Shown: positions 9,917-41,443, counted from the stretch's first letter. The stretch: DNA of 44,310 nucleotides from an uncultured Bacilli bacterium (GCA_944371685.1 CALVXV010000001.1:1-44310); one strand, 5' to 3'. Made by a program: numbers and translations. The notes: a model not told the origin generated them from the sequence alone.

Positions 9917-9944
9917 AGTGAAGTATTAGAAATGGAGAAGATTT

Positions 9945-10850: not shown

Positions 10851-10865
10851 AAAATGCTATGTAAT

Positions 10866-17088: not shown

Positions 17089-19830
17089 ATGGATTATAAA
17101 GATACGTTATTAATGCCACAAACAGAATTTAAAATGCGTGGTAATTTAGCTGAAAATGAAGTTAAACAGCGCCAAGAATGGGATGAGATGGATTTATATA
17201 ATTTAATTAAAAATAAAAATAAAAACAATAAACCATTTATTTTACACGATGGACCACCATATGCCAATGGTAATATTCATTTAGGCCATTCTTTAAATAA
17301 AATCTTAAAAGACTTCATTAACCGTTCTAAAATGATGGAAGGATATTATGTTGAATATATTCCAGGTTGGGATACTCATGGACTACCTATTGAACAAGCT
17401 GTAACTAATAGTGGTATTGATAGAAAGAGTATGTCAGTAGCGGAATTTAGAGAATATTGCAAAGAATATGCCTTAAAACAAGTTGAAACACAAATGGATG
17501 ACTTTAAAAAATTAAATGTCATAGCTGATTGGGAACATCCATATATTACTTTAAAGCCAGAGTATGAAGCTAGACAAATTGAAGTGTTTGCTAAAATGGC
17601 AGCTAAAGGTTTGATTTTTAAGGGGTTAAAGCCAGTATATTGGTCACCAAGTAGTGAGACAGCATTAGCTGAAGCAGAGATTGAATATAAAGATAAAGTT
17701 GATCCATCAATTTATGTTGCTTTTACGGTTACTGATGGAAATGAATATGTTCAAGCAGGTGATAAATTAGTTATTTGGACAACTACACCTTGGACTTTAC
17801 CAGGTAACTTAGGTGTATGTATTGGCGAAGAATTTGATTATTCAAAGGTAAAAGTAGGGGATAATAATTATATTGTAGCCACTGAATTATTAGAAAATTT
17901 AATGCAAGAATTTGGCTTTGAAAATTATGAAAAAATTGCTACATTTAAAGGTAAAGATATTGTAGGTATTAAATATCAACATCCATTTATGGATAGAACC
18001 TCACCAGTTGTAACTGCTGATCATGTAACTTTAGATGCTGGAACTGGTTTGGTTCATACTGCACCAGCTTATGGTGAAGATGATTTTATTGCTGGTAAAA
18101 AATATAATTTAGGTATGGTCAATGGAGTTAATGATAGAGGTATTTTAACTAAAGAGTCAGGTATGTTTGAAGGTTTATCTGTGGAAGATGCCAACAAAGA
18201 AATTCCAAAATGGTTAAAGGAAAATGGCTATTTATTAAAATTAAAGAAAATTACACACTCATATCCCCATGATTGGCGAACTAAAAAACCAATTATTTTT
18301 AGAGCAACTAAGCAATGGTTTTGTAGTGTAGATAAAATTAGAGATGAAATTTTACATGAATTAGATACAAATGTGAAATTCCATACTGAGTGGGGTAAAA
18401 CTAGAATTTATAATATGATTAAAGATAGAGGAGACTGGTGTATTTCAAGACAGAGAGCTTGGGGCGTACCAATTCCAATCTTTTATAACGAAGATGGCTC
18501 AGAAATTGTCGATTATGACGTTATGATGCATGTCGCTTCCTTATTTAGAGAACATGGTTCAAATATTTGGTTTGAAAAAGATGCTAAAGACCTACTTCCA
18601 AAAGGATATACTAATCCGGCAAGTCCAAATGGTAAATTTACTAAAGAAACAGATATCATGGATGTATGGTTTGATTCAGGAACTTCTTGGGCGGGTACAC
18701 TTCTTGAAAGAAAATTACCATATCCAGCTGATGTTTATTTAGAAGGCTCTGATCAATATCGTGGATGGTTTAATTCGTCATTAATTTGTAGTATGGCTTA
18801 TAGTGGCCATAGTCCATATAAGGAATTAGTATCTGCTGGTTTTGTTCTTGATGGTAAAGGCTTTAAAATGAGTAAAAGTATTGGTAATATTGTAAGACCT
18901 ATGGATGTGGTAGGTAAACAAGGAGCTGATATTTTAAGACTTTGGGTAGCCAGTGTTGATTATACCGAAGATGTAAGATTTAGTGATGAACTATTATCGC
19001 AAGTAAAAGAAGCTTATAGAAAAATTAGAAATACTTATAGATTTATGTTAGGTAACTTATTTGACTTTAATCCAGCTAATGATAAAGTTTCTTATGATAA
19101 ATTACCTGTTGCTGATCAATATATGTTAATTGAACTTAATGATATTATTGCTAAAGTAATTAAAGAATATGATGCTTATAATTATGATGAAATTTATAAA
19201 ATTATCAATAATTATGTTAATTCACTTTCAAACTTTTATTTAGATTTTACTAAAGATATTTTATATATTGAAAAAGCTGATAGTTATGTTAGAAGAAGTG
19301 TTCAAACTGTTTTATATGAAATTTTAACTTCATTAATTAAATTGATGGCCCCAATTTTACCATACACTAGTGAAGAAGTGTATAAACTTCTTCCAGGTAA
19401 AAAAGAAAAAAGTGTTCATTTAGAAAACTTCCCAGAAGTAAAAACTTATAAAAATGAAGTTGAATTAAGAGAAATGTTTGATTTATTCTTTGGTATTAAA
19501 GATGATGTTTATAAAGCTTTGGAAGAAGCTCGTAATGATAAACTAATTGGTAAATCTCTTGAAGCTAAAGTATTCTTAAAACTAAGAGATGAGGATAAAG
19601 AAACATTGAAACCAATTCTTTCAAATTTAAAACAATTGTTTATTGTCTCAGATGTTGTTCTGACAGCTGAAGAACTTCCTAAATATGAATATGCCGGAGT
19701 TCAAGTACAAAAATTTGAAGGTGAAAGATGCGAGAGATGTTGGAATTACTTTAATGAAATTGATATAACTGATCATTTATGTCCAAGATGTCACGAAATT
19801 GTTGAAACTTTAAATAAAAAAGAAGATTAA
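17089..19830 (+). CDS. ileS: Isoleucine--tRNA ligase
   Basis: 913 aa with HIGH motif (NGNIHLGH), KMSKS and a C-terminal zinc motif CERCWNY...CPRCH. Confidence 0.95.
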   Translation: MDYKDTLLMPQTEFKMRGNLAENEVKQRQEWDEMDLYNLIKNKNKNNKPFILHDGPPYANGNIHLGHSLNKILKDFINRSKMMEGYYVEYIPGWDTHGLPIEQAVTNSGIDRKSMSVAEFREYCKEYALKQVETQMDDFKKLNVIADWEHPYITLKPEYEARQIEVFAKMAAKGLIFKGLKPVYWSPSSETALAEAEIEYKDKVDPSIYVAFTVTDGNEYVQAGDKLVIWTTTPWTLPGNLGVCIGEEFDYSKVKVGDNNYIVATELLENLMQEFGFENYEKIATFKGKDIVGIKYQHPFMDRTSPVVTADHVTLDAGTGLVHTAPAYGEDDFIAGKKYNLGMVNGVNDRGILTKESGMFEGLSVEDANKEIPKWLKENGYLLKLKKITHSYPHDWRTKKPIIFRATKQWFCSVDKIRDEILHELDTNVKFHTEWGKTRIYNMIKDRGDWCISRQRAWGVPIPIFYNEDGSEIVDYDVMMHVASLFREHGSNIWFEKDAKDLLPKGYTNPASPNGKFTKETDIMDVWFDSGTSWAGTLLERKLPYPADVYLEGSDQYRGWFNSSLICSMAYSGHSPYKELVSAGFVLDGKGFKMSKSIGNIVRPMDVVGKQGADILRLWVASVDYTEDVRFSDELLSQVKEAYRKIRNTYRFMLGNLFDFNPANDKVSYDKLPVADQYMLIELNDIIAKVIKEYDAYNYDEIYKIINNYVNSLSNFYLDFTKDILYIEKADSYVRRSVQTVLYEILTSLIKLMAPILPYTSEEVYKLLPGKKEKSVHLENFPEVKTYKNEVELREMFDLFFGIKDDVYKALEEARNDKLIGKSLEAKVFLKLRDEDKETLKPILSNLKQLFIVSDVVLTAEELPKYEYAGVQVQKFEGERCERCWNYFNEIDITDHLCPRCHEIVETLNKKED

Positions 19831-19848: not shown

Positions 19849-19969
19849 GTATATAAGTTGGGAGTTCCCAGTATGTCATACAAAGCATGCATGTGATTAT
19901 AATGCAGCAGTTAATATAATGTTTAAAGGTTTAAAAATATATACGAAAGGATTAAAACAAGTTGTCTAA
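19847..19969 (+). pseudogene. tnpB: C-terminal relic of an IS200/IS605-type TnpB (OrfB) gene
   Basis: The 40-codon frame reads ...WEFPVCHTKHACDYNAAVNIMFKGLKIYTKGLKQVV*. This matches the TnpB C-terminal signature W.CP.CG..HDRD.NAA.NI...GL (zinc finger plus RuvC-III) in degenerate form. Everything upstream of this motif is missing, because the ileS terminator abuts it. Confidence 0.6.
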
Positions 19970-23948: not shown

Positions 23949-26366
23949 CTATTTTGTACTCTTTTTAATTAAAAATAAAAATTCATGTTCTATTGTATTA
24001 CCCTTATCTTTGATTCCATGTTTTTCTATGTTGGAAACAGTTTCCGAACCATAATATACCGTATTAAAATATTTTGAAGAATATTTTTGCAATTCTTCTG
24101 CCATATCTATTTTGGGAGTTTTTCCTAAATGTAATATAACTTTTCCGTTTTCTTTCAAAACTCTATTACACATTTCAAAAAATGAAGCATATATACTAAA
24201 ATCCTTTTTTTGTTTAGAATCTAAAAATAACTTGTCAGCATTTTTAAAATCTTCATTATTCCAACCACATAACCATAATCTCATCCAATTTTGCATATAG
24301 AATCTTATAGAATCTGCAAATGGAGGAGAACATATAATTACATCGACCGAATTGTCCAAATCTTTAATATCTGAATAATCTCCATATATAGAATAACCTT
24401 TAATATAATCATTAAAATCATTAATTTTATATGAGCTCTCTATTTTTTCTTTAATATGTTCTATTACATTTTTATAAATGAATTCTCCTTTTGGGGCATA
24501 TGGAGTTAAAGGATGTGAAGTCCTTGATAGTGCATAAGGTCTATTGCCATGTAACACATGTAAAAATGCCGAAAAGATCAACGCTTCTGGAGATGATAGT
24601 TTAGTAATTCTATTTACAAAATAATCTCTAGCGCATATTATTTCTCTGAATGTTTCTTCGTGAAAATATTCTTTTAATGTTTTATTAAAACCAAAATCTT
24701 TATTAGCTTCAATTAATTTATCTATTTTTTCAGTATTTTTGTTTTTTAAAATATATTTTTCTAATTTTGATAATTCAACTTTTACATCGTCATATCTAGG
24801 CTTCTCTAACTTGGCTTTAGTCACTATAAATGCCATTTCACTTAAATCATTACCAATACCAATTCTACCTTGCAAACATGCTTCAAATGGAATTGTACCA
24901 ACACCTGCTAATGGATCTAAAATGACATCTCCTTTGTTAGTAAAATTTTTAACCAAAAAATGTGCAATCGCCGGTTTTAATTTTCCATGATACGAGCACA
25001 ATGAATGCCAAGGATGTCCCCAGTTTCTTCCAGAATATTCTTTTTGTTTATATGGTAATGTCATCATAAATTTTTTTGCATCTTTATAGTATTTTTCAGA
25101 TATTTTTGTGTATTCATTATTTGAAAGATTTAAACTTAACTGTTGTTTGTTTTCCTTATTTAATTTGAACTTTAAAATTCTTTGAGATAAAGTCATATTA
25201 TTTTTTGATCTTCTTTCTCTTAAAATTATTTCATCATATTTTATAAAACCATTTATTTCACATATTTTAGTTAGTATTTCATGTGTAGGAATATGAACAC
25301 CAGCAAACTGTGAATCTCCTATATCCATGATAAAAATCCCACCATTTTTCATTGCTTTTGCAAGTTTTTTGATAACTTTATCCATATCGTTAAAATATCC
25401 AATAACCATTTTTATAATTCTTGAATCATATACTACAGGTTCTAGCTCTTTTATATATTTGTCAATAAACGATATTTCATTAATAAAAGTTTTTCTTTTA
25501 GATACATTATTTATACCTGAAATTATTCCTTTTGAGTGAAATTTAGGTAAATCTTTTTCTGAATTAATAAAATCATTTAATTTTAATTCAAGTTTTGTAT
25601 TTCTCATATAATTAGTTCCATTTAAATATGGTGGGGATGTAATTACACAATCTATTATATCTTCAAGAGTTATATCTCTTGCATCTTCGCTAGCTTTCAT
25701 GGAATAACATTTAATTGAATCTCCATAATTTATAATATCGTTTATTATAATATCTAATTTATTCAAAAACTGTTCTTTTACATTGTAATTCTTTTTGTTT
25801 TTTTCTTTTTCGTTAATATATCTTAAATCACCATTTCGAATTGTATTTGAAACTGGAACGATTATAGATGATAATGCAACCATTAAGATTTTTTTACTAT
25901 TATTTTCTTTAACATCACTTATCAAAGATTTGATTTTTAATATATAGTACAATACATCTTGATTAAAATATTTTTCAAAACCATCCCATGTAATTTTTTC
26001 ATTATTATATTCAAATAAAGTTGATTCAACTATATTATAAATTTTTTTTAAGTATTTAACACCAATATTTTTTTCAATTAAATTTTTAACACAGTTAATT
26101 TTGGCCTCTATAACCATTTGCATAAATGGATTTGATTCACTGTAATAAGAATTTATATTATATTGTGAACTAACTAAAGATGTTGTACCAGTTCCGCAAA
26201 AAGGATCATAAATATAATTAATATTTATATCTTTTAATTCATCTAATTCATTTGATACTAAGCAAGAAGAATATCCTTCTATATATTTATACCAATTATG
26301 TATTGGTTCTAATTTATTAAGTTGGAATGTACCAGCCTTTTTCTTTTTACAAGCCTCCATTTGCAC
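23949..26366 (-). CDS. Large DNA methyltransferase with two tandem N4/N6-type modules
   Basis: 805 aa. Module 1 has DPFCGTGTT (aa 54-62) and TSPPY (aa 243-247). Module 2 has DPLAGVGT (aa 484-491, followed by ...GRIGIGNDL) and CSPPF (aa 679-683). The track start is GTG 26366; ATG at 26360 lies 9 nt after GGAG. Confidence 0.75.
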   Translation of the reverse strand: MQMEACKKKKAGTFQLNKLEPIHNWYKYIEGYSSCLVSNELDELKDININYIYDPFCGTGTTSLVSSQYNINSYYSESNPFMQMVIEAKINCVKNLIEKNIGVKYLKKIYNIVESTLFEYNNEKITWDGFEKYFNQDVLYYILKIKSLISDVKENNSKKILMVALSSIIVPVSNTIRNGDLRYINEKEKNKKNYNVKEQFLNKLDIIINDIINYGDSIKCYSMKASEDARDITLEDIIDCVITSPPYLNGTNYMRNTKLELKLNDFINSEKDLPKFHSKGIISGINNVSKRKTFINEISFIDKYIKELEPVVYDSRIIKMVIGYFNDMDKVIKKLAKAMKNGGIFIMDIGDSQFAGVHIPTHEILTKICEINGFIKYDEIILRERRSKNNMTLSQRILKFKLNKENKQQLSLNLSNNEYTKISEKYYKDAKKFMMTLPYKQKEYSGRNWGHPWHSLCSYHGKLKPAIAHFLVKNFTNKGDVILDPLAGVGTIPFEACLQGRIGIGNDLSEMAFIVTKAKLEKPRYDDVKVELSKLEKYILKNKNTEKIDKLIEANKDFGFNKTLKEYFHEETFREIICARDYFVNRITKLSSPEALIFSAFLHVLHGNRPYALSRTSHPLTPYAPKGEFIYKNVIEHIKEKIESSYKINDFNDYIKGYSIYGDYSDIKDLDNSVDVIICSPPFADSIRFYMQNWMRLWLCGWNNEDFKNADKLFLDSKQKKDFSIYASFFEMCNRVLKENGKVILHLGKTPKIDMAEELQKYSSKYFNTVYYGSETVSNIEKHGIKDKGNTIEHEFLFLIKKSTK

Positions 26367-29750: not shown

Positions 29751-30410
29751 ATGGAAAATTCTTATTATAATGTGATTGAAACATTATTGTTAATTTTATC
29801 AGCCGATGAAGGAAAACTAAAAATATATCTTGAAAAGAAAAAAGAAGAACCTTACAAAGGCTATTGGATTCTTCCTGGAAGTATTTTAAATAATCAAACA
29901 ATTTTAGAAGATAATGCTAAAAATATTTATCAAAAAACTACGGGCTTAGATGAAGGTTGTATCTTTCAAACTAAGGCTTTTAGTGATTTAAAACGTGATT
30001 TAAATGAAAGAGTTATTGCGGTGTCATTTGTAGCTATAACTGATAAAACTTTAACAGATATTAAACAAAGTACTAATGAAAAAGCTTGGTTTCAAATTGA
30101 TGAATTACCAAAATTAGGGTTTGATCATGAACAGATTATTAATGAGGTTATCAGTGAGTTAAGGAAAAAAATAACCACTAACTATGATGATATGTTGATT
30201 AAATTTTTCCCTAGTGATTTTACACTTCCTGAACTTCAAAATTTCTACGAATTTGTTTTATCTAAACCGATTGACCGAAGAAATTTCCATAAAAAGTTTG
30301 TCAATCAAGATTTAGTCATTGATACTGGTTTTAAAACAGCAAAAGGTAGTGGTAGACCAGGTACCTTATATAGATTTAATATTGATAAAATGAAAGGTAA
30401 AAGACTATGA
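29751..30410 (+). CDS. NrtR-like protein: Nudix-fold domain with degenerate Nudix box fused to C-terminal winged helix
   Basis: 219 aa. GYWILPGSIL......LEDNAKNIYQKTTGL occupies the Nudix box position, but the REx2EE glutamates are replaced (KNIYQK). The C-terminal ...LQNFYE.VL.K..DRRNF.KK........DTG......GSGRPGTLYRF is typical of NrtR-type wHTH. Confidence 0.6.
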   Translation: MENSYYNVIETLLLILSADEGKLKIYLEKKKEEPYKGYWILPGSILNNQTILEDNAKNIYQKTTGLDEGCIFQTKAFSDLKRDLNERVIAVSFVAITDKTLTDIKQSTNEKAWFQIDELPKLGFDHEQIINEVISELRKKITTNYDDMLIKFFPSDFTLPELQNFYEFVLSKPIDRRNFHKKFVNQDLVIDTGFKTAKGSGRPGTLYRFNIDKMKGKRL

Positions 30411-30852: not shown

Positions 30853-32583
30853 TTAATAGAAATTAACATATTTATGTAGTTTATAAATTGTACCATTGAT
30901 TCTAAGGTATATATAATATTTTCCTTTAATTCCATCTTCACTTATATAGCGAGAAGTGGTGATTTTTTTCTTAGAATCGGTAGGAGTTAATAAATTATAA
31001 GTTTTCTTATCTAAGACATTATCTAAAATAATTTGCACATCATCATTTTCTTTAAATGTACCTTTAACTTTTAAACCATATACATCTTTATAAAGTGAAA
31101 TATTATATTTCTTTAAAATATTATCGTCATTTTTAGCACTTAAAAGTAAATAATTATTAGTGGTTTCAGATTCACCTAAACTACCAAGTCTGACACCATA
31201 AACTCCAGTATACACATCATTGGCATATAGACTCATTTTTTTGGTGTTATATAAAGTTGAATTTACATTCATTTTAATGACACTTGTGTTATCTTTAATT
31301 TCCATAAGAGTATGACCTTGGGTAATTACAAAATCGTTATCACCTAAAATTTCTAAATAAGTTTCTTCGTTAGTTGGTAATTCGAAATTATCAAGCTCTT
31401 TAACAGTTCTATTTGAATAATCTATTTGGTATGTTAGTAAATGTTTTTTACCATCTATTTCGCTAGCAAAAATCATTTTATTATCGCTAAGTAAATTAAC
31501 TGATTCTGGTTTGTTAGGATAATTAAAGTCGCCATCGGTTTTAAGTAAATATGGTTTATAATCATTACTAACTTTGTTTTTATCGGCAATAATCCAGTTA
31601 ATATCTAAAGTCGTATAATCCAAATTTACAATCATATTACCATTATATCCTGATATTGTAATTGAATTAGTATTGATATCATAATTGATTGAATTCATAC
31701 CAAACCAATTATTTTTCTTTTTACCAGGTAAAATTTTATATAAATCAATTTCTTTAACAATGTTGCCACTAGCTCTATCAATTTCAACAGCTATATCTTC
31801 TGATGTTGATCGGCCATAACGATTAGAAGCTAAAAGTAAATTACCATTATTTAATTCATAAACATCATGGTGATAACCACCTGGAACGGTGTATTCATAA
31901 TAAACTTTACCAAGTAAATCCATTTCAATTAAACCAATACTGTAATTTTTTCTAAGAGTTTTATCACTACTAAGTAAGATATGACCATTATTTAGTCTTT
32001 GAATGTCCCATTTATAATCGCCAATTAAATACCATCTAACTTCACCGTTTTCATCATAAGCAGCCGTATAACCAATTTCTTCTGGAGTTGTAAAATAAAA
32101 CTCATCAGTATCAAAATTTTTATTAGATAAATCGGTTACTTTGGAAAAATCATCGGGTAGAGCAGAGGTTGTAATTGTAAGTTCTTTAACTGTACCACTG
32201 GCTTCGACAATAACTTTGTTATCATATCCAGCATATAGTCCATAGATTGGTAAAATGTGAACTTTAGCTGGCGTAAATGTATGTTTTAAGTCTTTGGCTC
32301 CATCTTTACCTTTAATTGTTATTGTTGTGGTTGTTAAGTCTTTAGTTTGAAAAACAATTAAAGCTGAAAGTGGGGAGTTACCATAAGGATTTAAAATGAC
32401 ATTAGGATTATCAATGGTGTAATTTGTATTGCTTAAATATTGTTTTTCACTTTGATTTTGAAGATAAAATATATCACTTTCAGTATCAATTGGGATGTTA
32501 TCCATAACATAATTATAAATAAATATTGAAGCTGCAAAAGTGACAACAACTAGTATAATGTATTTTGCAATTATTTTTTTCAT
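30853..32583 (-). CDS. Arylsulfotransferase (ASST)-family beta-propeller protein, N-terminally anchored
   Basis: 576 aa with an N-terminal TM helix. Repeated ...NGH/NGN-LLLS/AS... blades and GGYHHDVYELNNGNLLLAS are reminiscent of the ASST family. Assignment is by eye. Confidence 0.5.
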   Translation of the reverse strand: MKKIIAKYIILVVVTFAASIFIYNYVMDNIPIDTESDIFYLQNQSEKQYLSNTNYTIDNPNVILNPYGNSPLSALIVFQTKDLTTTTITIKGKDGAKDLKHTFTPAKVHILPIYGLYAGYDNKVIVEASGTVKELTITTSALPDDFSKVTDLSNKNFDTDEFYFTTPEEIGYTAAYDENGEVRWYLIGDYKWDIQRLNNGHILLSSDKTLRKNYSIGLIEMDLLGKVYYEYTVPGGYHHDVYELNNGNLLLASNRYGRSTSEDIAVEIDRASGNIVKEIDLYKILPGKKKNNWFGMNSINYDINTNSITISGYNGNMIVNLDYTTLDINWIIADKNKVSNDYKPYLLKTDGDFNYPNKPESVNLLSDNKMIFASEIDGKKHLLTYQIDYSNRTVKELDNFELPTNEETYLEILGDNDFVITQGHTLMEIKDNTSVIKMNVNSTLYNTKKMSLYANDVYTGVYGVRLGSLGESETTNNYLLLSAKNDDNILKKYNISLYKDVYGLKVKGTFKENDDVQIILDNVLDKKTYNLLTPTDSKKKITTSRYISEDGIKGKYYIYLRINGTIYKLHKYVNFY

Positions 32584-33289: not shown

Positions 33290-33565
33290 TTAATTTTTAG
33301 ATTTGTATAGATCAACTCGTTTAGGTAATTTTTTGGCTAGACTAGCTGTTGTTTCGTCAAATAATAAATTAACTTTGATTCCAAACGTTTTAGCTATATT
33401 ATCAATGTTTTTACAAGTTAAATTTGCATCGCCATTTTCAATAGTACTAATATATGCCATTTTAAATTTTGTTTTATTGGCAAATTGTTCTTGGGTAAGG
33501 TTGTTTTGATATCTATACCATTTTGTATTTAAACCAACTAATTCCATTGCTTTCATATAAATCAC
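33290..33565 (-). CDS. XRE-family HTH transcriptional regulator
   Basis: About 88-91 aa with the HTH_3 motif NLTQEQFANKTKFKMAYISTIENGD.N. It is divergent from the decayed secreted-protein gene. Confidence 0.75.
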   Translation of the reverse strand: MIYMKAMELVGLNTKWYRYQNNLTQEQFANKTKFKMAYISTIENGDANLTCKNIDNIAKTFGIKVNLLFDETTASLAKKLPKRVDLYKSKN

Positions 33566-33721
33566 TCTACCTTTACAAAATATTAAGACAAAACTTAATT
33601 ATATATAAATTATAAATTTAAAGTGTAAACAACTTAATACCACTAAATATTATTAAGGTATATCTTAATAAGACTCTAAAAATATGTTATACTTCAAATA
33701 TAAAGTAAAGGAGAAGTATTT

Positions 33722-34607
33722 ATGAAAAAAATTAAAGAAGTTTCAAAAAGATATTTAATAGGATTTGTAATAGGCATAGTAGTTTGGGGTGGAATGAGTG
33801 CAATAGCTATGACTTATTTCCCATCAAACCAAACAACTTGTGATAATAGTGTAAGTGGACTTAAAAGTAAGGATGTGCAGGGAGCCATAGATGAGCTTTA
33901 TAAAACTTGCACAGCAAAGACAGTAAATATTGGCGGTATTGAAGTACCTTTAGAAGATGATGGAGATGGTTTATGTGAAGATGAGAAGGTGTAAGAACAA
34001 CTGGATATTGTTCACAAGGTAGTGCTCCATTATATGGGTGCGACGCATGGAGTTCAACGACAAATATGGTAGGAAATCCCATTGAATTTTCAAATGGTAT
34101 ATGTGCTGCTATTGTTGAAGATGATAGTGAAATATTAAAATATTTAAATTCAAAATTTTTGAATAGTATAAGTGAAAATAAAGATAAAATAATAAATCAT
34201 ATTTGGAATATTGGCGGGGTTGTACAATTGGAAGATAGTATCAAGTACAATTAGAAGATGAGAAGGAATATCAGTGGAGTGGGAAGGTTGGACTTATAAG
34301 TATTAGTGATTATCTTAAAGCAAATGGTCAACAAGATGCTTGTGGAACTTATTTGAAATATAGTAGTATTGTTGAAGGATTGTGTTCAAATTTTGTTTGG
34401 ATGTATTTACAAAACAGCAATTGGTGGACAATATCTCATATTAAAAATAGTGAGGTACTTCCTCAGGGTGTATATTTTATTTCAAAAGTTATAGGAGTTA
34501 ATAATGCAAATGTAATTCATGATGTCCGTCCTGCCTTATATTTATCCTCTGAGATCCAAATTACTGGAGGAGATGGCAGCCAAAATAATCCATATACGAT
34601 TGAATAA
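33722..34607 (+). pseudogene. Frameshifted paralogue of 20036..20950 (secreted VQGAIDELY-motif protein)
   Basis: Homology to the intact copy is spread over three frames. Frame A (33722-33994) has the signal plus YFPSNQTTCDN.VSGLKSKDVQGAIDELYKTC..GDGL. Frame B runs to 34254. Frame C (about 34244-34607) has GLISISDYLKANG, NWWTIS, VRPALYLSS and GGDGSQNNPYTIE. Confidence 0.75.
34222..34259 (+). repeat. Tandem near-duplicate (period 23 nt) at the second frameshift of the pseudogene
   Basis: GTACAATTGGAAGAT (34222-34236) and GTACAATTAGAAGAT (34245-34259) match at 14/15 positions and are offset by 23 nt (not a multiple of 3). They sit exactly where the reading frame switches. Confidence 0.7.
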
Positions 34608-34750
34608 AATTAAAGATTTTATTAAAATTTAATGGTTTTTAGAATGCTGTAATTATTATTTAGAGGTATCAAATAATTTTGATATCTTTTAATTTAATAT
34701 TTATATATAAAAAAATTATATAGCTATGATTTTTCATTATAAGTATAGGG

Positions 34751-34779
34751 TTTAAAAAACTAAGATAGTAATGTATAAT
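34751..34779 (+). promoter_or_regulatory. Candidate promoter of the CYTH-rSAM-LysR operon
   Basis: TTTAAA (34751-34756), 17-nt spacer, TATAAT (34774-34779). GGAGG RBS at 34791-34795 precedes ATG 34801. Confidence 0.4.
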
Positions 34780-34800
34780 ATAGTAGAAATGGAGGCTTTT

Positions 34801-35376
34801 ATGGGAAAAGAAAAAGAAGTAACGATTTTGGATATTAATGAAGAAGAATTTGTTAATAAGTTATTAAAAAATGGTGCTGTCAAACAAGATGAATTTTTAC
34901 AAAGAAGATATACTTATGATTTTAATCCAGTTAAAAAAAACAAGTGGATTAGATTAAGAACTAATGGGAAAAAGACAACTTTAACAATTAAAGAGATAAA
35001 GGATAAATCAGCCATAGATGGAACAATGGAACTGGAGACAGTTGTTGATGATTTTGATGTAATGAATGATATTTTAAATGAATTAGGCTATCATTATCGT
35101 AATTATCAAGAAAATTACCGAAAAATTTATTTGATGGATAATGTAGAAATTTCTATTGATTCATGGCCATTAATACCAACTTATGCGGAAGTGGAAGGTA
35201 AGAGTAATGAAGATGTTATAAAGGCTTTAAATAAATTAGGATACACTTTAAATGATGTAACTACTTTAGATGTAACCTCTATTTATAATGAAATATATAA
35301 TATTGATTTACTAAAAATAAAAGAATTAAAGTTTGAAGGGAGTAATCATGAAAGTATGCTGGAGTATAACAAGTAA
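34801..35376 (+). CDS. CYTH-domain (triphosphate tunnel metalloenzyme / CyaB-like) protein
   Basis: 191 aa from ATG 34801; the track start 34771 falls in the -10 box. Fold landmarks by eye: N-terminal EKEVT (ExExK position), WIRLRT, TLTIKE, MELETVVDD, LNELGY.......Y.K.Y, VEISIDSWP.IPTYAEVEG. Confidence 0.6.
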   Translation: MGKEKEVTILDINEEEFVNKLLKNGAVKQDEFLQRRYTYDFNPVKKNKWIRLRTNGKKTTLTIKEIKDKSAIDGTMELETVVDDFDVMNDILNELGYHYRNYQENYRKIYLMDNVEISIDSWPLIPTYAEVEGKSNEDVIKALNKLGYTLNDVTTLDVTSIYNEIYNIDLLKIKELKFEGSNHESMLEYNK

Positions 35377-36085
35377 ATGTAATAGAAATTGCAGATATTG
35401 TTTTAGATTTAATAGACAAGATTTATCTTTAAAAGAAAATGAAAAAGTTTTAGACAGTTTATTCAAAATGGGGGTAAAGAAAATTTCATGGACTGGTGGT
35501 GAACCATTTTTATACGATGATTTGCCAATTTTACTAAAAAAAAGTAAAGAATATGGAATTATTAATTCTGTGAATACTAATTTAACGACAGTTGATTTAG
35601 ATAATTTAAAAGATAAAATTAAAAATGTTGATAGATTAATTATATCTTTAGATTTTATCTCAGATGCTTTGAATGAAAAATATGGAATAGGAAAAGATTA
35701 TTATAAACATGTTTCTAAGATATTAAAACGAGTGAAACAAATCAAACCTGATATAATTTTGCAATTAAATACAGTTTTATTTAGTGGGAATATTAATTAT
35801 ATGGATGGCTTATATAAGGAAATTTGTAAATATGATATAGATTATTGGAAAATAATTCGTTTTTTACCGATTAGAGGTAAAGCTTATGAAGAAAAAAATA
35901 ATTTATCAATTGAGGATGATCAATTTGAAAAAATTTTGACAAGGTTTAAACAAAAAAAACAACATTTTAAAATTATTATTCACGGATTAAAAGAAATGGA
36001 AAAAAAACATATTATAGTTTTAAGCTCTGGGAAACTAATTTATAGTGAAAATGGGAAGGATAAAGAGATTAAATCTTTAATTTAA
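35348..36085 (+). CDS. Radical SAM enzyme, viperin (RSAD2)-like, short form
   Basis: 245 aa from ATG 35348 (RBS GGGAG; the track TTG is at 35333). CNRNCRYC lies at 35378-35401. It aligns with viperin blocks by eye: KISWTGGEPFLYDD, DRLIISLDF....N...G.GK...KHV, LQLNTVL, DYWKIIRFLPIRGKA, IEDDQFEKILTRFK. No extra Cys cluster is present. Confidence 0.6.
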   Translation: MKVCWSITSKCNRNCRYCFRFNRQDLSLKENEKVLDSLFKMGVKKISWTGGEPFLYDDLPILLKKSKEYGIINSVNTNLTTVDLDNLKDKIKNVDRLIISLDFISDALNEKYGIGKDYYKHVSKILKRVKQIKPDIILQLNTVLFSGNINYMDGLYKEICKYDIDYWKIIRFLPIRGKAYEEKNNLSIEDDQFEKILTRFKQKKQHFKIIIHGLKEMEKKHIIVLSSGKLIYSENGKDKEIKSLI

Positions 36086-36101
36086 GGAAGGAAATTTTAT
36101 A

Positions 36102-36995
36102 ATGGATAAAAATATCAATTTGAATTTGTACCGAATTTTTTATGAAACAGCTCAATATCATAGTATTTCTGATGCGGCCAAAAGTATGTATTTATCACAG
36201 CCCGCTATCAGTAAAGCAATTAAAAATTTAGAAAATGAACTGAATGTTATGCTGTTTTATAGAACACTTAATGGAATTATTTTAACTGATAAAGGTAAAG
36301 AATTATATGAGTTAGTGGAAGATGCTTTAGGTAATTTTAGACAAGCAGAAAAACGGATGCTTGAAAATAAAAATTTAGAGAAGGGTTCTTTGTCAATTGG
36401 TGTAAGATCAAATGTGGCATCATTTTATTTATTGGATAAGATTGCGTCTTTTCATAAAAAATATAACAAAATTGATATAGTGATTATTGATAGACCAAGT
36501 AGTGAGCTATTAAGAATGCTTTCAAATAATGAAATTGATTTTGTATTAGATTCTGTATCAGTAAAAGATGAATTAGATGGATTTGACGTTAAACCATTAG
36601 ATACTTTTACGCATACATTTATAGTTCTTCCTGAGTTAAACGTTTTACCTTATAAAGAAAAATATCATTTAAAAGAATTAGAAAATCTTCCACTTATATT
36701 ACCGGTTTCACATAGTTCACATAGACAGTATTTAAATAATTTAGCACAAGACAATAATACTAGTTTTAACAATGTCCTTTCTATAGAAACAAGTGAACTG
36801 ATTTATAGTATGGTAAAAAAAGGTTTGGGTATAGGCTATATTTTAAGAGATATGGTAAAAAGTGATATTGAAAGTGGCAAATTAAGAGAGATAAAAATAT
36901 ATGAAGAATTACCAGATATATCTTTAAATTTAATATGTAAACAGAGAAATTTAACTGAAGCCCCTAGACGTTTTATAGATGAATATTTAAAATAA
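36102..36995 (+). CDS. LysR-family transcriptional regulator
   Basis: 297 aa with N-terminal HTH (F.ETAQYHSISDAAKSMYLSQPAISKAIKNLENEL....F.R) and a C-terminal substrate-binding-like domain. It starts 16 nt after the rSAM stop, with RBS AGGAAGGA. Confidence 0.85.
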   Translation: MDKNINLNLYRIFYETAQYHSISDAAKSMYLSQPAISKAIKNLENELNVMLFYRTLNGIILTDKGKELYELVEDALGNFRQAEKRMLENKNLEKGSLSIGVRSNVASFYLLDKIASFHKKYNKIDIVIIDRPSSELLRMLSNNEIDFVLDSVSVKDELDGFDVKPLDTFTHTFIVLPELNVLPYKEKYHLKELENLPLILPVSHSSHRQYLNNLAQDNNTSFNNVLSIETSELIYSMVKKGLGIGYILRDMVKSDIESGKLREIKIYEELPDISLNLICKQRNLTEAPRRFIDEYLK

Positions 36996-37158
36996 CATGA
37001 AAAAATGTTATTTTTTTATTATTTTTTTGAATAGTAATTACCGAAAAATATATTGATAAAAAAATTTTTTATACGAATAATTAAAGGTTATAATTTTATA
37101 AATTATTGGTATTTTTAAACTATTTTATTTTATGATACATTTAAGTTGAGGAGGAAAT

Positions 37159-38637
37159 ATGTATAAGGTAATTGCGATTAGTGGAAGTTCAGGTAGTGGA
37201 AAAACTACAGTTAGTGAAGAAATTTTAAAAAGGGCGAAAAAGTTAGTTTATTTTGATTTTGGTTTTCTATTTAGACCAATTACATATTATTTAGTGAATG
37301 AATTAAATATGGATGAGGATAGTATTAAAAATATGGTTTTAAGTGGGCAACTGCAAAGATTTATTAAGGTTACATATAAAGTTATTAATAATAAAGTGGA
37401 AGTTGGTGTTAATGGTAAATTTTATAGTTTTGATGTTTTAAATACACCAAAGATGAATATGGATACAATTACAGTTGGAACAATTATTGGTGATACACTC
37501 AATGACGCTTTAAGAAGTATAGTGGATGATTTAAAAAAGGAAAATAATGTATTACTTAATGCGAGAAGGCCGATAGTTGCTTATCCTAAAGCAGATTGTC
37601 ATATTTTTTTAGAAGCTAGTTTTGACGAGAGAATTAAAAGAAAAATGCTTATGAATAATGAAGATTATGAAACTACTTTAAAAAAGTTAAAAAAACGTGA
37701 TGAAAAAGAAGAAACTAGTGGTTTTTGGGAAAAATATGATTTTACAAAAATTATTGATACAACAAATTTAACTAAGGAGGAAGCGGTAGATAAGGTATTA
37801 CAGGTAATAAAAAATGAATTTGTCAGTTTTAATAATTTAACATTAATTTTAGGATCATATAAATGTAATAAGAATTGTCCATATTGTATAGCTAAAAATA
37901 ATAAAAAGTTTTCTGCAGACGATAATTTAGATTACTTAGATGAAGTTTTCAATGAATTATTAAAATATAAAATTAAATTTAAGAGATTTGTTGTTAGTGG
38001 TAATGGTGAACCGTCATTTTATTCTTTAGAAAATTTAAAAATTATAAGAGATTTACTGATAAAATATCAAGAATTGTTTGAAATAGTTAGGGTTCATTCT
38101 TCTGGGAATATTTTTAGTGAGGAAAAGAAGTTTAAACTTTTTAATTTATCAAATTTACCACTGGAATTTGAGGTTCTAAGAGTTGCTTTAAATCCATATA
38201 TAGATATGAATATTTTAGGATATGATGAAGATTATTTAAAAACAAATTCGTTTCATGAGGGAAATATAAAATGTGATATTGCTTTAACTGATTATTTAGA
38301 AGCTGATGAATTAAAGTTTAAACTTTATAATTTTTTGGAAGATAATCCGTCTATAAAAAAAGTTAGGTTAAAAAGTTTATTAGCGGGTGATAGCACTAAT
38401 ACTAAGCAGGCACAATGGGTAAGAAAACATTCTCTTAGTGCGGATAAAATTCAAATGATTATAGAAGAACTTGGTTTAAATTTAAATGATGGGATTTATA
38501 GTTCTGATGATGGTAAAATTATTTATAAAACAAATGGTGATTATACTTTTGATTATGTAATTAATGACGGAATATTTCAAAATTATAATAATGAAAAATG
38601 TAGTATGAAAGTGTTAAGAAGAAAGTTAGGTGGCTAA
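37159..38637 (+). CDS. Fusion protein: cytidylate (CMP) kinase-like P-loop domain + radical SAM domain
   Basis: 492 aa. The N-terminal half has IAISGSSGSGKTT (37183-37209), FDFGFLFR, ...KADCHIFLEASFDERIKRK, KKRDEKEE and IIDTTNLTKEE, matching Cmk landmarks. The C-terminal half has CNKNCPYC (37864-37887), VVSGNGEPS and VRLKSLLAGDS, which is radical SAM, possibly also viperin-related. Confidence 0.65.
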   Translation: MYKVIAISGSSGSGKTTVSEEILKRAKKLVYFDFGFLFRPITYYLVNELNMDEDSIKNMVLSGQLQRFIKVTYKVINNKVEVGVNGKFYSFDVLNTPKMNMDTITVGTIIGDTLNDALRSIVDDLKKENNVLLNARRPIVAYPKADCHIFLEASFDERIKRKMLMNNEDYETTLKKLKKRDEKEETSGFWEKYDFTKIIDTTNLTKEEAVDKVLQVIKNEFVSFNNLTLILGSYKCNKNCPYCIAKNNKKFSADDNLDYLDEVFNELLKYKIKFKRFVVSGNGEPSFYSLENLKIIRDLLIKYQELFEIVRVHSSGNIFSEEKKFKLFNLSNLPLEFEVLRVALNPYIDMNILGYDEDYLKTNSFHEGNIKCDIALTDYLEADELKFKLYNFLEDNPSIKKVRLKSLLAGDSTNTKQAQWVRKHSLSADKIQMIIEELGLNLNDGIYSSDDGKIIYKTNGDYTFDYVINDGIFQNYNNEKCSMKVLRRKLGG

Positions 38638-38638
38638 A

Positions 38639-39349
38639 GTGCGAAAGATATTAAATTTTGTTGGTACTGGTGGTGCTTTTTCGACAAAGTATATAAATAA
38701 TTGTGCATATTATTATTTAAAAGATGATACGATTTTATTGTTTGATGCGGGTGAAACGGTTTTTCACGAGATTTTGAAAAGAAATATTATAAATGAAAAT
38801 ATTAAAAGAGTTGATATTGTAATTACACATTTTCATAGTGATCATGTAGGCAGTTTAGGAAGCTTAGTTTTTTATTTAAGATATAAGAAAATAAGTGAAG
38901 TAAATATTATATTTCCCATTAAAGTTATACCATATATGCTTTTAAATATTTATGGTATTGATGAAAGGTTATTTAATGTAAAAAAACCATGTGAAATACA
39001 TGATTATTATATTAAGGAATATGAACAATTGCATGGTGATTTAGATAAAGATGGAAATATTATTTCAATGCCTAGTTATGGATATCATGTGATTAATAAT
39101 AATGATAATTTCTTTTATAGTGGTGATACATGTATTATTAGTGATATAATATTAAAAAAGTTTAAAAATAAGGAAATTAAAATAATGTATCACGAAGTAA
39201 CTACTGATGGGTATAAAACACATATGCAATTAGATGATTTAACTAGATTGATTGATGTTAAAGATAGGAATAGAGTGATATGCATGCATATGGGAGATAA
39301 TGTAGATGTGTCAAAGATTAAAAGTTTAGGATTTGGGAGTGTGAGGTAA
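38639..39349 (+). CDS. Metallo-beta-lactamase-fold hydrolase (RNase Z/PhnP-like subgroup suspected)
   Basis: The start is GTG 38639 (AGGTGG RBS at 38628-33) or GTG 38630; it overlaps or abuts the fusion-gene stop. Motifs are FVGTGGAF, LLFDAGE and ITHFHSDH (38828-38845), with later SGDT and H residues. Confidence 0.75.
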   Translation: MRKILNFVGTGGAFSTKYINNCAYYYLKDDTILLFDAGETVFHEILKRNIINENIKRVDIVITHFHSDHVGSLGSLVFYLRYKKISEVNIIFPIKVIPYMLLNIYGIDERLFNVKKPCEIHDYYIKEYEQLHGDLDKDGNIISMPSYGYHVINNNDNFFYSGDTCIISDIILKKFKNKEIKIMYHEVTTDGYKTHMQLDDLTRLIDVKDRNRVICMHMGDNVDVSKIKSLGFGSVR

Positions 39350-39351
39350 AT

Positions 39352-39933
39352 ATGAAAGAGGAATTAGAAATTTGTGTTAGGTCTTTAGTGCCATTTAAAC
39401 AACTTTATGACGATATGATTAATAAAGGGTTTCATGTTCAAGAGGATTTTATTTTAAATGATATTTATATGGTTCATAATGACATAGAAGTATCTTTGGA
39501 AAATGAAGATGTGATTTTTTCTAATTATGTTTTGATTAGAGAGACTGTAGGTAAAAAGAAAATGCTTGTTTTAAAACATAAAGAAATGAATAAAAAAGGT
39601 GAGATAATAAAACAAGAGTCAGTTAAATGTCCAATTGATGATTGCACAAAAGCTTATGAATTTATGAAAGCTATTGGTTATAAAAAAATTTTTGATATTA
39701 GTGATCATAATATTTTGATGAGTAATGGGAAAAATGAAATTTATCTTCAAGATGTAAAAGGGATTGGAACTTATGTTGAGATGGAGCAAAAAAATTTACT
39801 TTTGAAGAATAATAATGGTGATACAATAGATAAAATGAAAAATAATTTACAAGGATATGCATTACAAATTGATACCAAAGATTATTTTGCAAGAAAAGCA
39901 TATGATGCGTTTAAAAAGATATTTAATGAGTAA
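39352..39933 (+). CDS. Second CYTH-like domain protein
   Basis: 193 aa, starting 2 nt after the MBL gene. Landmarks by eye: N-terminal ELEIC (ExExK position), VLIRET, LVLKHKE, QESVKCPIDD, MKAIGYKKIFDISDHN, EIYLQDVKGIGTYVEMEQ. Confidence 0.5.
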   Translation: MKEELEICVRSLVPFKQLYDDMINKGFHVQEDFILNDIYMVHNDIEVSLENEDVIFSNYVLIRETVGKKKMLVLKHKEMNKKGEIIKQESVKCPIDDCTKAYEFMKAIGYKKIFDISDHNILMSNGKNEIYLQDVKGIGTYVEMEQKNLLLKNNNGDTIDKMKNNLQGYALQIDTKDYFARKAYDAFKKIFNE

Positions 39934-39934
39934 A

Positions 39935-39968
39935 AAAAGACTGTTACATTTTACAATGACAGTCTTTT
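39935..39968. terminator. Bidirectional rho-independent terminator
   Basis: AAAAGACTGT (39935-39944) pairs with ACAGTCTTTT (39959-39968). The A-run and T-run make it usable from both strands. It lies between convergent genes. Confidence 0.8.
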
Positions 39969-39973
39969 TACAT

Positions 39974-40126
39974 TTAGTGATTACCACAAGCTCTAGCTCC
40001 GATAATTATTACAAGTAAAATAAATAGCACTAAAATGATTGCTGCGCCATAGCCTGTTCCGTATCCGCCACCATAGCCACCGTATGAAGGGCAGCCATAG
40101 CCTTGATACCCACCATAGTAATACAT
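39974..40126 (-). CDS. YjcZ-family small Gly/Tyr-rich sporulation protein (not in ORF track)
   Basis: 50 aa: MYYYGGYQGYGCPSYGGYGGGYGTGYGAAIILVLFILLVIIIGARACGNH*. GGAGG RBS lies 7 nt upstream. A Gly/Tyr-rich head plus the hydrophobic tail (A)IILVLFILLVII(IG) is the YjcZ/tiny-TM signature. Confidence 0.7.
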   Translation of the reverse strand: MYYYGGYQGYGCPSYGGYGGGYGTGYGAAIILVLFILLVIIIGARACGNH

Positions 40127-40270
40127 ATAATACCTCCTATCTATTCTAATATAGTTTATGATAAAGTAAAAAACCGTATATTAGAAATACCTAATTTTAT
40201 ATTTTAAAACTCACCATCTAGTCAAAAATACAAGAATATGCTATGATTATATAAGAATAGGAGGCGGGTT

Positions 40271-41443
40271 ATGAAAGAAAAGTCATTATTTAAACTTTTA
40301 AAAGATTTAGATAAACCATTGTTAATTGCGTCCGCAGCTTTATTTATTTTTGGACTTTTAAATATCGTTACAGCCTCCTCAAGAGCAGCAGTTGTCAATT
40401 ATGATGTGTCTATATATTATTATTTTTATCGCCAGCTGGCGTTTATTATAATTGGTTTAATTGCTGGGGCTATTATTATTAAAACTGATACCAAATATTA
40501 TAAAGTAATAGTTCCTGTTTTATTTGTGGCAGCTATCGCCTTAAATCTTTGGGCTTTAACTTTTGAGGAATTATCAGGCTCTAAAAACTGGATTGATTTA
40601 AAGGTAATTAAATTGCAACCGAGTGAATTTTCCAAGCCGATTATTATTTGTTTACTAGCAATTTTATTTGAAAAAAATTATCGCAAATTAAGAACCGTCA
40701 ACATTAAACATTATGATACTATTGCGACGATGCTTTTGATAGCGATGATTATTCCAGCTATTATTGTTTTACAAAAGGATTTCGGAACTTTATTGATAAC
40801 TTTATTTATAATCGGTATGATGTTTCTGGCTAGTCCAATTTTAAAGATAGATAAAATTAAAACTTTTTTATTTATGTTAGTTTTAGGTAGCCTAGCTTTA
40901 CTTGTTATTTATAATGTTCAAGGATATATATTAAATGATGCTAGAATTAGTAGATTTACTTCATTTTTAGATCCTTGTGGTAATTATGAAAAAGGTGGTT
41001 ATCAGGTTTGTAACAGTTATATTGCTATAAATGATGGAGGATTATGGGGATTAGGTATTGGCAAGAGTAAACAAAAATATTCATATATACCAGAGCCTCA
41101 TACTGATTCAGCTTTTGCAATTATTGCTGAAGAATATGGTGTTTACCGTAGCGTGTTTATTTTTATTTTATATGCTATTGTTTTATATCGTATTGCTGTG
41201 ATTGGATCTAAAGCAGCAAGCTTAAGAGGCCGGTATATCTGTGTTGGTATCATTAGTTATATATTTGTACATATTTTTATTAATTTAGGTGGTATGTTTG
41301 GTCTTATTCCATTAACTGGAGTTCCACTTCCATTTTTAAGTTATGGTGGTAGCTTTGTCTTATCATTATTAGCTTCACTAGCTATTGTTCAAAGAATTTG
41401 TATTGAATCGAAAAATAAGAAGATAAAAATTCCTAAGAAATAA
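40271..41443 (+). CDS. SEDS-family protein (FtsW/RodA/SpoVE)
   Basis: 390 aa, about 10 TM helices. It has conserved blocks ...LQPSEFSKP, PEPHTDSAFAII.EE.G and GLIPLTGVPLPFLSYGGS. Confidence 0.9.
   Translation: MKEKSLFKLLKDLDKPLLIASAALFIFGLLNIVTASSRAAVVNYDVSIYYYFYRQLAFIIIGLIAGAIIIKTDTKYYKVIVPVLFVAAIALNLWALTFEELSGSKNWIDLKVIKLQPSEFSKPIIICLLAILFEKNYRKLRTVNIKHYDTIATMLLIAMIIPAIIVLQKDFGTLLITLFIIGMMFLASPILKIDKIKTFLFMLVLGSLALLVIYNVQGYILNDARISRFTSFLDPCGNYEKGGYQVCNSYIAINDGGLWGLGIGKSKQKYSYIPEPHTDSAFAIIAEEYGVYRSVFIFILYAIVLYRIAVIGSKAASLRGRYICVGIISYIFVHIFINLGGMFGLIPLTGVPLPFLSYGGSFVLSLLASLAIVQRICIESKNKKIKIPKK

Follow-up and report, generated by a model that had tools for sequence, protein, structure and literature searches.

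What could a bacterium make with an operon that combines two radical S-adenosylmethionine (SAM) domains, a cytidine monophosphate (CMP) kinase, a metallo-beta-lactamase-fold (MBL) hydrolase, two CYTH proteins and a LysR-type regulator? The question is raised by a cluster at positions 34,751–39,968 of a 44,310-nucleotide stretch of DNA from an uncultured Bacilli bacterium (GCA_944371685.1 CALVXV010000001.1:1-44310; this whole stretch is called the window below). A first-pass annotation had read the cluster as a candidate nucleotide-modifying system with two viperin-like radical SAM domains, and viperins are a textbook case of immunity conserved from bacteria to humans. We find that the six genes form a real and evolutionarily conserved operon and are not a chance juxtaposition. 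In what follows, module A comprises CYTH1, the radical SAM protein rSAM-A and LysR, and module B comprises the CMP-kinase::rSAM-B fusion, the MBL hydrolase and CYTH2.

Translation of the window recovered six open reading frames (ORFs) at the same coordinates as in the first-pass annotation, all on the plus strand (Table 1). Together with the folding energy of the hairpin at the operon end (dG -13.3 kcal/mol, z = -3.5; 0 of 200 shuffles fold as well), this bears out its description of co-directional, tightly packed genes closed by a strong hairpin. The GC content of the cluster, at 24–26%, shows no clear difference from its surroundings.

At least 13 of the loci that were fetched (L001–3, L007–9, L016–18, L020, L022–23 and L028) have all six genes in this order, with protein identities of 47–91%, and come from uncultured Bacilli metagenome-assembled genomes (MAGs) of about 1.5 Mb from chicken, rabbit and human gut. 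Co-occurrence beyond this genome, on which the first-pass annotation had made its proposal depend, is thus clear. In one further locus (L027; 35–45% identity) the order of the modules is swapped, and in another (L010) CYTH1, rSAM-A and LysR are followed by a CYTH::CMP-kinase fusion, rSAM-B as a protein of its own, CYTH2 and, instead of the MBL protein, a PHP phosphoesterase. Such rearrangement with retention of the parts is strong evidence of a functional link. The two halves are also found apart, module B alone in L004, L019 and L021 and module A alone in L013–15, and the fusion family comprises about 60 clusters at 90% identity. The link to CYTH is kept in closer relatives, either by fusion to the kinase (P0053 and P0055 are CYTH::CMP-kinase proteins) or by adjacency, with rSAM-B adjoining a CYTH1-like gene in L026, L029, L030 and L080. 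The genomic position of the cluster is not conserved, the genes that flank it in the window lying beside it in 0 of 22 related loci. The earlier statement that no system of this composition had been described is borne out by full-text searches of the literature on viperin, CYTH, radical SAM, cytidylate kinase, MBL, PnuC and Apyc1 and by the PADLOC systems.

rSAM-A and the viperins

rSAM-A carries a Pfam Radical_SAM match (3e-20), and its best profile matches are viperin models, namely NF038283 (2.9e-34) and the PADLOC models for prokaryotic viperins (pVips; 3e-36 and 2e-34). Its scores nevertheless stay under the NCBIfam viperin cut-offs (118.5 vs 180 bits for NF038283 and 50.3 vs 450 bits for TIGR04278). 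The same is true of its relatives, which were sought exhaustively among 1.84 billion cluster representatives: the 80 nearest all match NF038283, with a best E of 2.9e-50, and 0 of the 80 reach the cut-off. When the family profile was compared with the PDB, nine viperin entries ranked first (5e-25 to 6e-19), the next family following at 8e-12, and the best annotated plasmid matches were PGAP 'viperin family' genes at 23–29% identity. The protein contains the motifs CX3CX2C (CNRNCRYC), GGEP (GGEPF), SLD, NTV and WK, with the cluster and SAM motifs invariant in the family alignment.

We then compared signature residues in an alignment of rSAM-A with the PGAP plasmid viperins of Anabaena (250 aa) and Thiodictyon (284 aa) and with human RSAD2, whose sequence, like some of the residue roles, is taken here to be correct. 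Common to the three viperins are VN(Y/F)H before the cluster, a basic residue at the position of mouse K220, RWK, and GEN/GQN after beta-6; rSAM-A itself has CWN, Gln, YWK and RGKA in these places. In its family CWN(I/V)T, with one additional Cys, is invariant; Gln/Asp/Thr stands at K220, Y/R/G/S at R245, and RGxA replaces GEN/GQN. Cys4 and Arg176 of rSAM-A are invariant. The residues of the viperin pocket include S124, K220, N222 and K247 (PMC11970327). By these comparisons of sequence, rSAM-A is a member of a sister clade of the viperins, and this clade probably has a different substrate or reaction outcome. To speak of two viperin-like domains was therefore too strong: the profile and the nine PDB entries uphold the description for rSAM-A, though not as a curated viperin, and for rSAM-B it is only weakly suggested (see below). 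PADLOC-type hidden Markov models will probably label rSAM-A as a pVip, and that label may be wrong. A further candidate difference, that rSAM-A is without the viperin C-terminal extension, was suggested by PDB alignments ending near residue 204 and was withdrawn; length is no discriminator here, because the Anabaena viperin has only 250 residues and the NF038283 alignment reaches profile position 250 of 281.

Might the locus be a classical pVip anti-phage system all the same? rSAM-A, and perhaps rSAM-B, would then turn CTP, UTP or GTP into 3'-deoxy-3',4'-didehydro-nucleoside triphosphate (ddhNTP) chain terminators, the only viperin product class known to us; the fused CMP kinase would boost the substrate as CMPK2 does for RSAD2, the CYTH and MBL proteins would detoxify or recycle, and LysR would induce the genes on infection. 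The PADLOC models, the closest solved structures and the closest annotated plasmid genes all speak for this, and the motifs of rSAM-A, together with a CMP-kinase-type gene in the same cluster, recall both pVips with nucleotide kinases and the vertebrate RSAD2–CMPK2 pair. Kinase neighbours are typical of viperins, as shown by the deoxynucleoside kinase beside the Anabaena pVip and by the linkage that Shomar et al. (2023) describe, and relatives of rSAM-A are themselves linked or fused to PfkB kinases. The neighbourhood of the cluster differs in every lineage, and some relatives adjoin an IS605 TnpB, AbiEii (L103) or a ToxN::CYTH-like fusion (L123). Against this, the score of rSAM-A, the 0 of 80 representatives at the cut-off and the replaced signature motifs set it apart from curated viperins. 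In PADLOC-DB v2, CYTH1, LysR and CYTH2 have no match, the fusion and the MBL protein are marginal (E at least 5e-4), and the model for pVip–kinase fusions does not match the fusion protein. The kinase of the window is joined to the second radical SAM domain, of a non-viperin family, and not to rSAM-A, which is tightly coupled instead to CYTH and LysR; a tight LysR link, even to the point of fusion, is not a feature of described pVips. The flanks in the window do not resemble a defence island, and tblastn of annotated phages and plasmids with the fusion, rSAM-B and rSAM-A gave no match except distant true viperins on plasmids. We regard a classical pVip system as unlikely, though it is a live rival. 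The sub-threshold scores and replaced motifs count against calling the locus a pVip, but not against the claim that nucleotides are worked on by viperin-like chemistry.

A biosynthetic cluster for a secreted nucleoside-type antimetabolite, in which the radical SAM enzymes would modify the sugar and phosphorylated intermediates or self-resistance would fall to the kinase, CYTH and MBL proteins, is suggested by the resemblance of rSAM-A to BlsE, the cytosylglucuronate decarboxylase of blasticidin S biosynthesis, which at 4e-9 is far weaker than that to viperins. LysR regulators dedicated to one pathway are frequent in biosynthetic clusters, and a further group of relatives, here called type-3 clusters (L113–L140, e.g. 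L137:3663-10729), joins a viperin-like radical SAM protein and a CYTH protein to an Apyc1-like MBL protein, a 692-aa U32 TrhP/UbiU-like protein (a hydroxylase homolog) and two methyltransferases. Their make-up resembles that of a pathway that tailors a modified pyrimidine. The cluster in the window, however, has no exporter, glycosyltransferase, amide ligase or resistance gene, and gut MAGs of its hosts' size rarely carry such clusters, which makes this explanation very unlikely.

The fusion protein, the MBL hydrolase and the CYTH proteins

The N-terminal domain of the fusion matches PF02224 Cytidylate_kin (9e-17; 62 bits vs a cut-off of 26), and its AlphaFold2 model (pLDDT 89) superimposes in Foldseek on solved Cmk structures of E. 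coli and M. abscessus with TM-scores of 0.82–0.84, so that its earlier assignment as a CMP kinase rests on a genuine Cmk fold. The P-loop GSGKT and several arginines are invariant in 29 homologs. At 60 vs 135.55 bits, the domain scores below the NCBIfam cmk equivalog cut-off (TIGR00017) and is therefore assigned to a paralogous subfamily, not to housekeeping cmk.

rSAM-B presents a different picture. It has a weak PF04055 match (29.1 bits vs a cut-off of 29.5), the motifs CX3CX2C (CNKNCPYC) and GNGE (GNGEPS), both invariant in the family alignment, and 17.9 bits in the comparison with the NCBIfam viperin models. Its profile gave no significant sequence match in the PDB, the best being SkfB (E 0.05), with viperins at E 0.2–0.3, and hhalign aligned it with rSAM-A only over the generic N-terminal 109 columns that form the cluster- and SAM-binding half. 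Since kinase matches dominated the search with the whole fusion, Foldseek was run with a model of the rSAM-B domain only (pLDDT 93, pTM 0.90). The top match was mouse viperin 5vsl (E 3e-8, TM-score 0.66–0.68), with NifB, EpeE and others close behind, and this was the sole viperin entry in the top 50. rSAM-B belongs to a separate, large, unnamed radical SAM family whose viperin likeness is weakly suggested by the predicted structure, and the first-pass description of it as a second viperin-like domain is too strong.

As a domain on its own, rSAM-B is represented by at least 351 clusters, annotated just 'radical SAM' or 'hypothetical', from gut Alphaproteobacteria MAGs, Gastranaerophilales, RF39-like Bacilli/'Tenericutes', Clostridia, one genome of the Candidate Phyla Radiation and a few IMG/VR phage contigs. 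The stand-alone homologs, 30–38% identical to the domain in the window, lie in a conserved operon with a PnuC-family transporter (57/75 loci) and a nucleoside-2-deoxyribosyltransferase-like protein (46/75) that is sometimes fused to rSAM-B; in operons of the Bacilli/Clostridia type a 300-aa P-loop kinase-like protein then follows (19/75). HAM1/RdgB, NrtR-like, NMNAT-like, CofE-like, DHH and Metallophos genes surround this operon. Loci L031–L095, from gut Alphaproteobacteria, Gastranaerophilales and RF39-like Bacilli with reduced genomes, contain such PnuC/rSAM-B operons, for example at L039:8931-13601 and L042:6555-10822. An N-terminal CYTH domain that had been considered in the 300-aa partner ('c9') found no support (hhalign below 1% against both CYTH families; PDB match to NeuTTM at E of about 0.3). 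Separately, IMG/VR phage contigs (L096–L099, about 9748–11474) encode a distant rSAM-B homolog of about 265 aa and 30% identity next to a 223-aa protein resembling the core of a class-II aminoacyl-tRNA synthetase; the same pair lies between engB and der in the bacterial loci L079 and L081.

This wider family raises the possibility of a nucleoside or nucleotide salvage or repair pathway of genome-reduced gut bacteria, housekeeping or conditional, in which a nucleoside-like nutrient or damaged nucleotide would be imported or processed, phosphorylated, radical-modified and dephosphorylated under an ordinary substrate-responsive LysR. The widespread transporter/deoxyribosyltransferase-like/kinase operons of stand-alone rSAM-B support it, as do the nucleoside phosphorylase, thymidine kinase, NUDIX and pyrophosphatase genes that flank several relatives. 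The phosphoesterase partner differs between loci (MBL, PHP, DHH, Metallophos or NUDIX), which suggests a single step of phosphoester hydrolysis for which the enzymes can be exchanged, and unrelated superfamilies in one slot are as expected from non-orthologous replacement. On the other hand, the six-gene form is patchy and has no conserved genomic position, which is unusual for core metabolism; the window has no PnuC, nucleoside-2-deoxyribosyltransferase-like or stand-alone rSAM-B gene, beside the cluster or elsewhere; no salvage role is known for viperin-like enzymes; and no known pathway requires two radical SAM enzymes and two CYTH proteins. On balance a salvage or repair role is possible but doubtful.

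The MBL protein matches Pfam Lactamase_B_2 and, in the PDB, gives full-length matches to 7fct (2e-24) and to Apyc1 7u2r (2e-17, residues 8–226); it is similar over its full length also to the Apyc1 structure 7u2s and the host homolog 7t28. RNase Z aligns with only the N-terminal ~75 residues. We therefore consider the protein Apyc1-like, and not of the RNase Z/PhnP type as previously proposed. It shares with Apyc1 and its chromosomal relatives, which antagonise Pycsar, the MBL fold and the HxHxDH motif, seen as THFHSDH in the translation. Like some Apyc1 homologs recorded in the AntiDefenseFinder paper, it is chromosomal and lies beside a cyclase-like (CYTH/CyaB-like) gene. Unlike Apyc1, it scores under the curated cut-offs (37.8 vs 50 bits for PF23023 Anti-Pycsar_Apyc1; 23.4 vs 400 bits for NF041851), and the locus has no Pycsar cyclase or effector. 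Chromosomal Apyc1 homologs cleave cyclic nucleoside monophosphates (cNMPs; PMC11724313). As the slot of the MBL protein is held by PHP, DHH, Metallophos or NUDIX proteins in relatives, the substrate here need not be a 3',5'-cNMP.

Both CYTH assignments of the first-pass annotation stand. CYTH1 exceeds the Pfam gathering cut-off (PF01928; 29.5 vs 23.2 bits), stays below that of TIGR00318 cyaB (6e-10; 39 vs 57.95 bits) and has as its best PDB match Saci_0718, an archaeal triphosphate tunnel metalloenzyme (TTM; 3e-5). CYTH2 is below both cut-offs (Pfam 15.8 vs 23.2 bits; TIGR00318 7e-11, 42.3 vs 57.95 bits) and is homologous to the CYTH1 family (hhalign probability 88%, E 3e-6, 130 columns); in every MBL-containing module-B locus tabulated it lies 3' of the MBL gene. 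Like known CYTH/TTM proteins, including the class IV adenylate cyclase CyaB, both match CYTH or cyaB models and keep the charged tunnel residues and ExEx positions, the acidic and basic tunnel residues of CYTH1 being kept among 18 homologs. They differ in falling short of the cyaB equivalog cut-off and in the lysine of ExExK, which is replaced by Thr in CYTH1 and Cys in CYTH2. The CYTH::kinase fusions P0053 and P0055 recall plant AtTTM1/2, which are CYTH plus P-loop-kinase proteins. We know of no CYTH protein that works with a radical SAM enzyme.

The LysR gene, its spacer and a proposed mechanism

The LysR protein carries HTH_1 (1e-17, 64.3 bits) and LysR_substrate (3e-30, 105.6 bits) domains, both well over the Pfam cut-offs, and adjoins rSAM-A in every tabulated relative. 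Among the nearest relatives of rSAM-A are rSAM-A-like::LysR fusions of about 560 aa. In L103–105 such a fusion is preceded by CYTH and followed, after a 363-nt gap, by an unrelated operon encoding an SsuA-like ATP-binding cassette (ABC) transporter, a dikinase resembling phosphoenolpyruvate synthase and rifampicin phosphotransferase, and a histidine phosphatase. Within five ORFs of an rSAM-A-like gene (at least 31% identity), 37 informative metagenome loci showed LysR in 22, CYTH in 20, an Apyc1-like MBL protein in 10 and the kinase/rSAM-B fusion in only one; a PfkB kinase, on its own or fused, is present in other arrangements. Module A is therefore a portable cassette tied to LysR. A relative of particular composition is L123:6753-10227, where a 384-aa ToxN-toxin::CYTH-like fusion lies directly upstream of a LysR gene and of a viperin-like radical SAM protein that is fused to a receiver-like domain (408 aa); this arrangement hints that some family members work in an abortive-infection context.

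The spacer between LysR and the fusion contains conserved blocks, namely a box ATTAC-N5-8-(A/T)TATA, a dyad TTAT-N4-ATAA, a TATAAT-like element and GTATTTTT, which are kept between loci whose proteins are just 50–70% identical. The box was found upstream of the fusion in 7 of the 9 loci scanned. The spacer fits a conserved promoter/operator, to which LysR may bind. No Rfam riboswitch match was obtained in 33400–40300, even at E <= 1, or in five related operons. A side observation concerns the box itself: an 18/19 copy of its form in the window, AATTACCGAAAAATATATT, lies inside the CYTH1 coding sequence (35113–35131). Chance alone would give about 0.04 such copies in the window when up to two mismatches are allowed, and two were seen in none of the shuffles; in related loci the copy within CYTH1 is not kept.

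How might these parts work together? The first-pass annotation had imagined a linear scheme in which the kinase supplies a nucleoside triphosphate to one or both radical SAM domains and the CYTH and MBL proteins process the triphosphate or a cyclic product. That scheme is weakened, since the two halves are separable modules that are found alone, and rSAM-A has its closest partner in LysR, with which it even forms fusion proteins in some relatives. Tentatively, and at somewhat less than even confidence, we favour an operon of two modules, gated by LysR, for the synthesis or processing of a nucleotide with a modified ribose or phosphate, probably of the pyrimidine type. Its substrates, reaction order, LysR sensing and biological purpose we infer against the background of the observed gene order, modularity, fusions, fold assignments and spacer conservation. 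CYTH1 and rSAM-A would act on a nucleoside triphosphate, or on a nucleotide related to it, and yield a modified nucleotide; LysR would sense this product and act on the conserved promoter/operator in the spacer; and module B would be the regulated enzymatic output, with the kinase phosphorylating a CMP-like nucleotide, rSAM-B carrying out a second radical transformation, and CYTH2 and the Apyc1-like MBL protein acting on a triphosphate or on a 3'- or cyclic phosphate. A link to nucleotides is supported by every enzyme of the cluster, from the CMP-kinase fold and the viperin-nearest rSAM-A to the Apyc1-like MBL and CYTH proteins, and relatives add PfkB kinases, NUDIX proteins and PHP, DHH and Metallophos phosphoesterases.

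Several points weigh against this gated two-module reading. No terminator in the spacer passed a consensus scan, so read-through from module A is possible and both modules may be one operon. The LysR gene comes after CYTH1 and rSAM-A and is transcribed in their direction, whereas genes of LysR-type regulators are classically divergent, and a LysR gene beside enzymes also resembles an ordinary pathway regulator. Promoter and operator assignments are made at the level of consensus, and because promoter-like sites in the region are not enriched over shuffles, the one upstream of module A is a candidate only. The missing ExExK lysine makes the chemistry of both CYTH proteins uncertain, and the transporter- and salvage-like operons of the wider rSAM-B family fit a metabolic role without signalling.

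A bolder version, which we consider improbable, is that viperin-type chemistry here serves transcriptional signalling and not chain termination. CYTH and rSAM-A would make the ligand of LysR, and module A would be a portable 'make-your-own-inducer' cassette with varied output operons, module B in this genome and the ABC transporter and dikinase elsewhere. Enzyme-coupled transcription factors such as BirA and NadR offer a parallel, in that an enzyme with a nucleotide ligand is joined to a DNA-binding regulator, as in the rSAM-A-like::LysR fusions of relatives and the adjacent genes of the window; they differ in that there is no homology and that ligand sensing is here an assumption. We know of no earlier description of a LysR-type regulator with a fused radical SAM domain.

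Surroundings of the cluster and significance

Table 1. Coordinates of genes, domains and candidate regulatory elements in the cluster
Feature	Position	Strand	Details
Candidate sigma-70-type promoter, TTTAAA-17-TATAAT	34751-34779	+	10/12 consensus matches; upstream of module A
CYTH1	34801-35376	+	191 aa; 201 aa if alternative ATG 34771 is used
rSAM-A, 245-aa radical SAM protein	35348-36085	+	29-nt overlap with CYTH1
LysR regulator	36102-36995	+	297 aa; 16-nt gap after rSAM-A
Intergenic spacer, LysR / fusion	36996-37158	+	163 nt
Spacer box, ATTAC-N5-8-(A/T)TATA	37036-37054	+	Conserved block
Spacer dyad, TTAT-N4-ATAA	37069-37080	+	Conserved block
Putative -10-like hexamers in spacer	37076-37081 and 37089-37094	+	Sequence reading
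Putative ribosome-binding site in spacer	37150-37155	+	Sequence reading
CMP-kinase::rSAM-B fusion	37159-38637	+	Kinase residues 1-222, rSAM-B residues 223-492
CMP-kinase-like domain of fusion	37159-37824	+	Residues 1-222
rSAM-B domain of fusion	37825-38637	+	Residues 223-492
MBL hydrolase	38630-39349	+	239 aa; GTG start, 8-nt overlap with fusion stop
CYTH2	39352-39933	+	193 aa; 2-nt gap after MBL
Bidirectional terminator-like hairpin at operon end	~39934-39970		13-bp stem between A-run and T-run

On its left the cluster is bordered by three co-directional ORF fragments of 90, 62 and 84 aa (33722–34607, plus strand), which hold internal direct repeats at 33942–33960 and 34243–34261 and have no Pfam or NCBIfam match; the label of a decayed gene fits them and is unconfirmed. 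The gene on the right (39974–40126) encodes a Gly/Tyr-rich product of 50 aa with a hydrophobic stretch, and its label as a sporulation gene could not be confirmed, as it has no Pfam or NCBIfam match. No convincing direct or inverted repeats that would mark an insertion flank the cluster. The window flanks carry def, an Xre regulator, an arylsulfotransferase, an NrtR-like regulator, ftsW and comEA/EC. The NrtR-like winged-helix regulator (29751–30410, plus strand; PF21906, 8e-20) belongs to a family that accompanies PnuC/rSAM-B operons in other genomes. Upstream of the cluster lie an 805-aa N6/N4 DNA methyltransferase (23949–26366, minus strand) and the 576-aa arylsulfotransferase (30853–32583, minus strand), near which no restriction or other defence partner was identified. 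A 32-aa tblastn match at 19859–19954, with 66% identity to the C-terminus of the IS605-family TnpB from L007, sits just 3' of the ORF at 17089–19830 and is probably a transposase remnant. A T-box leader (RF00230; 13264–13466, plus strand; 110 bits vs a gathering score of 93) precedes the ORF at 13532–14263.

For the family, these results mean that a sizeable viperin-like sister clade exists that is systematically coupled to CYTH and LysR, fusions included, and that in this operon has a further partner, a second radical SAM family, large and unannotated, joined to a CMP kinase. Identification of the product would either widen the range of nucleotides open to viperin chemistry or uncover a new nucleotide signal. 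It would also give a function to chromosomal Apyc1-like phosphodiesterases and bacterial CYTH proteins, and would put names to hundreds of genes now listed as 'radical SAM/hypothetical' in uncultured gut bacteria with reduced genomes. Should the signalling interpretation prove true, which we think unlikely, the operon would represent something categorically new, in which viperin-type chemistry feeds a transcription factor.

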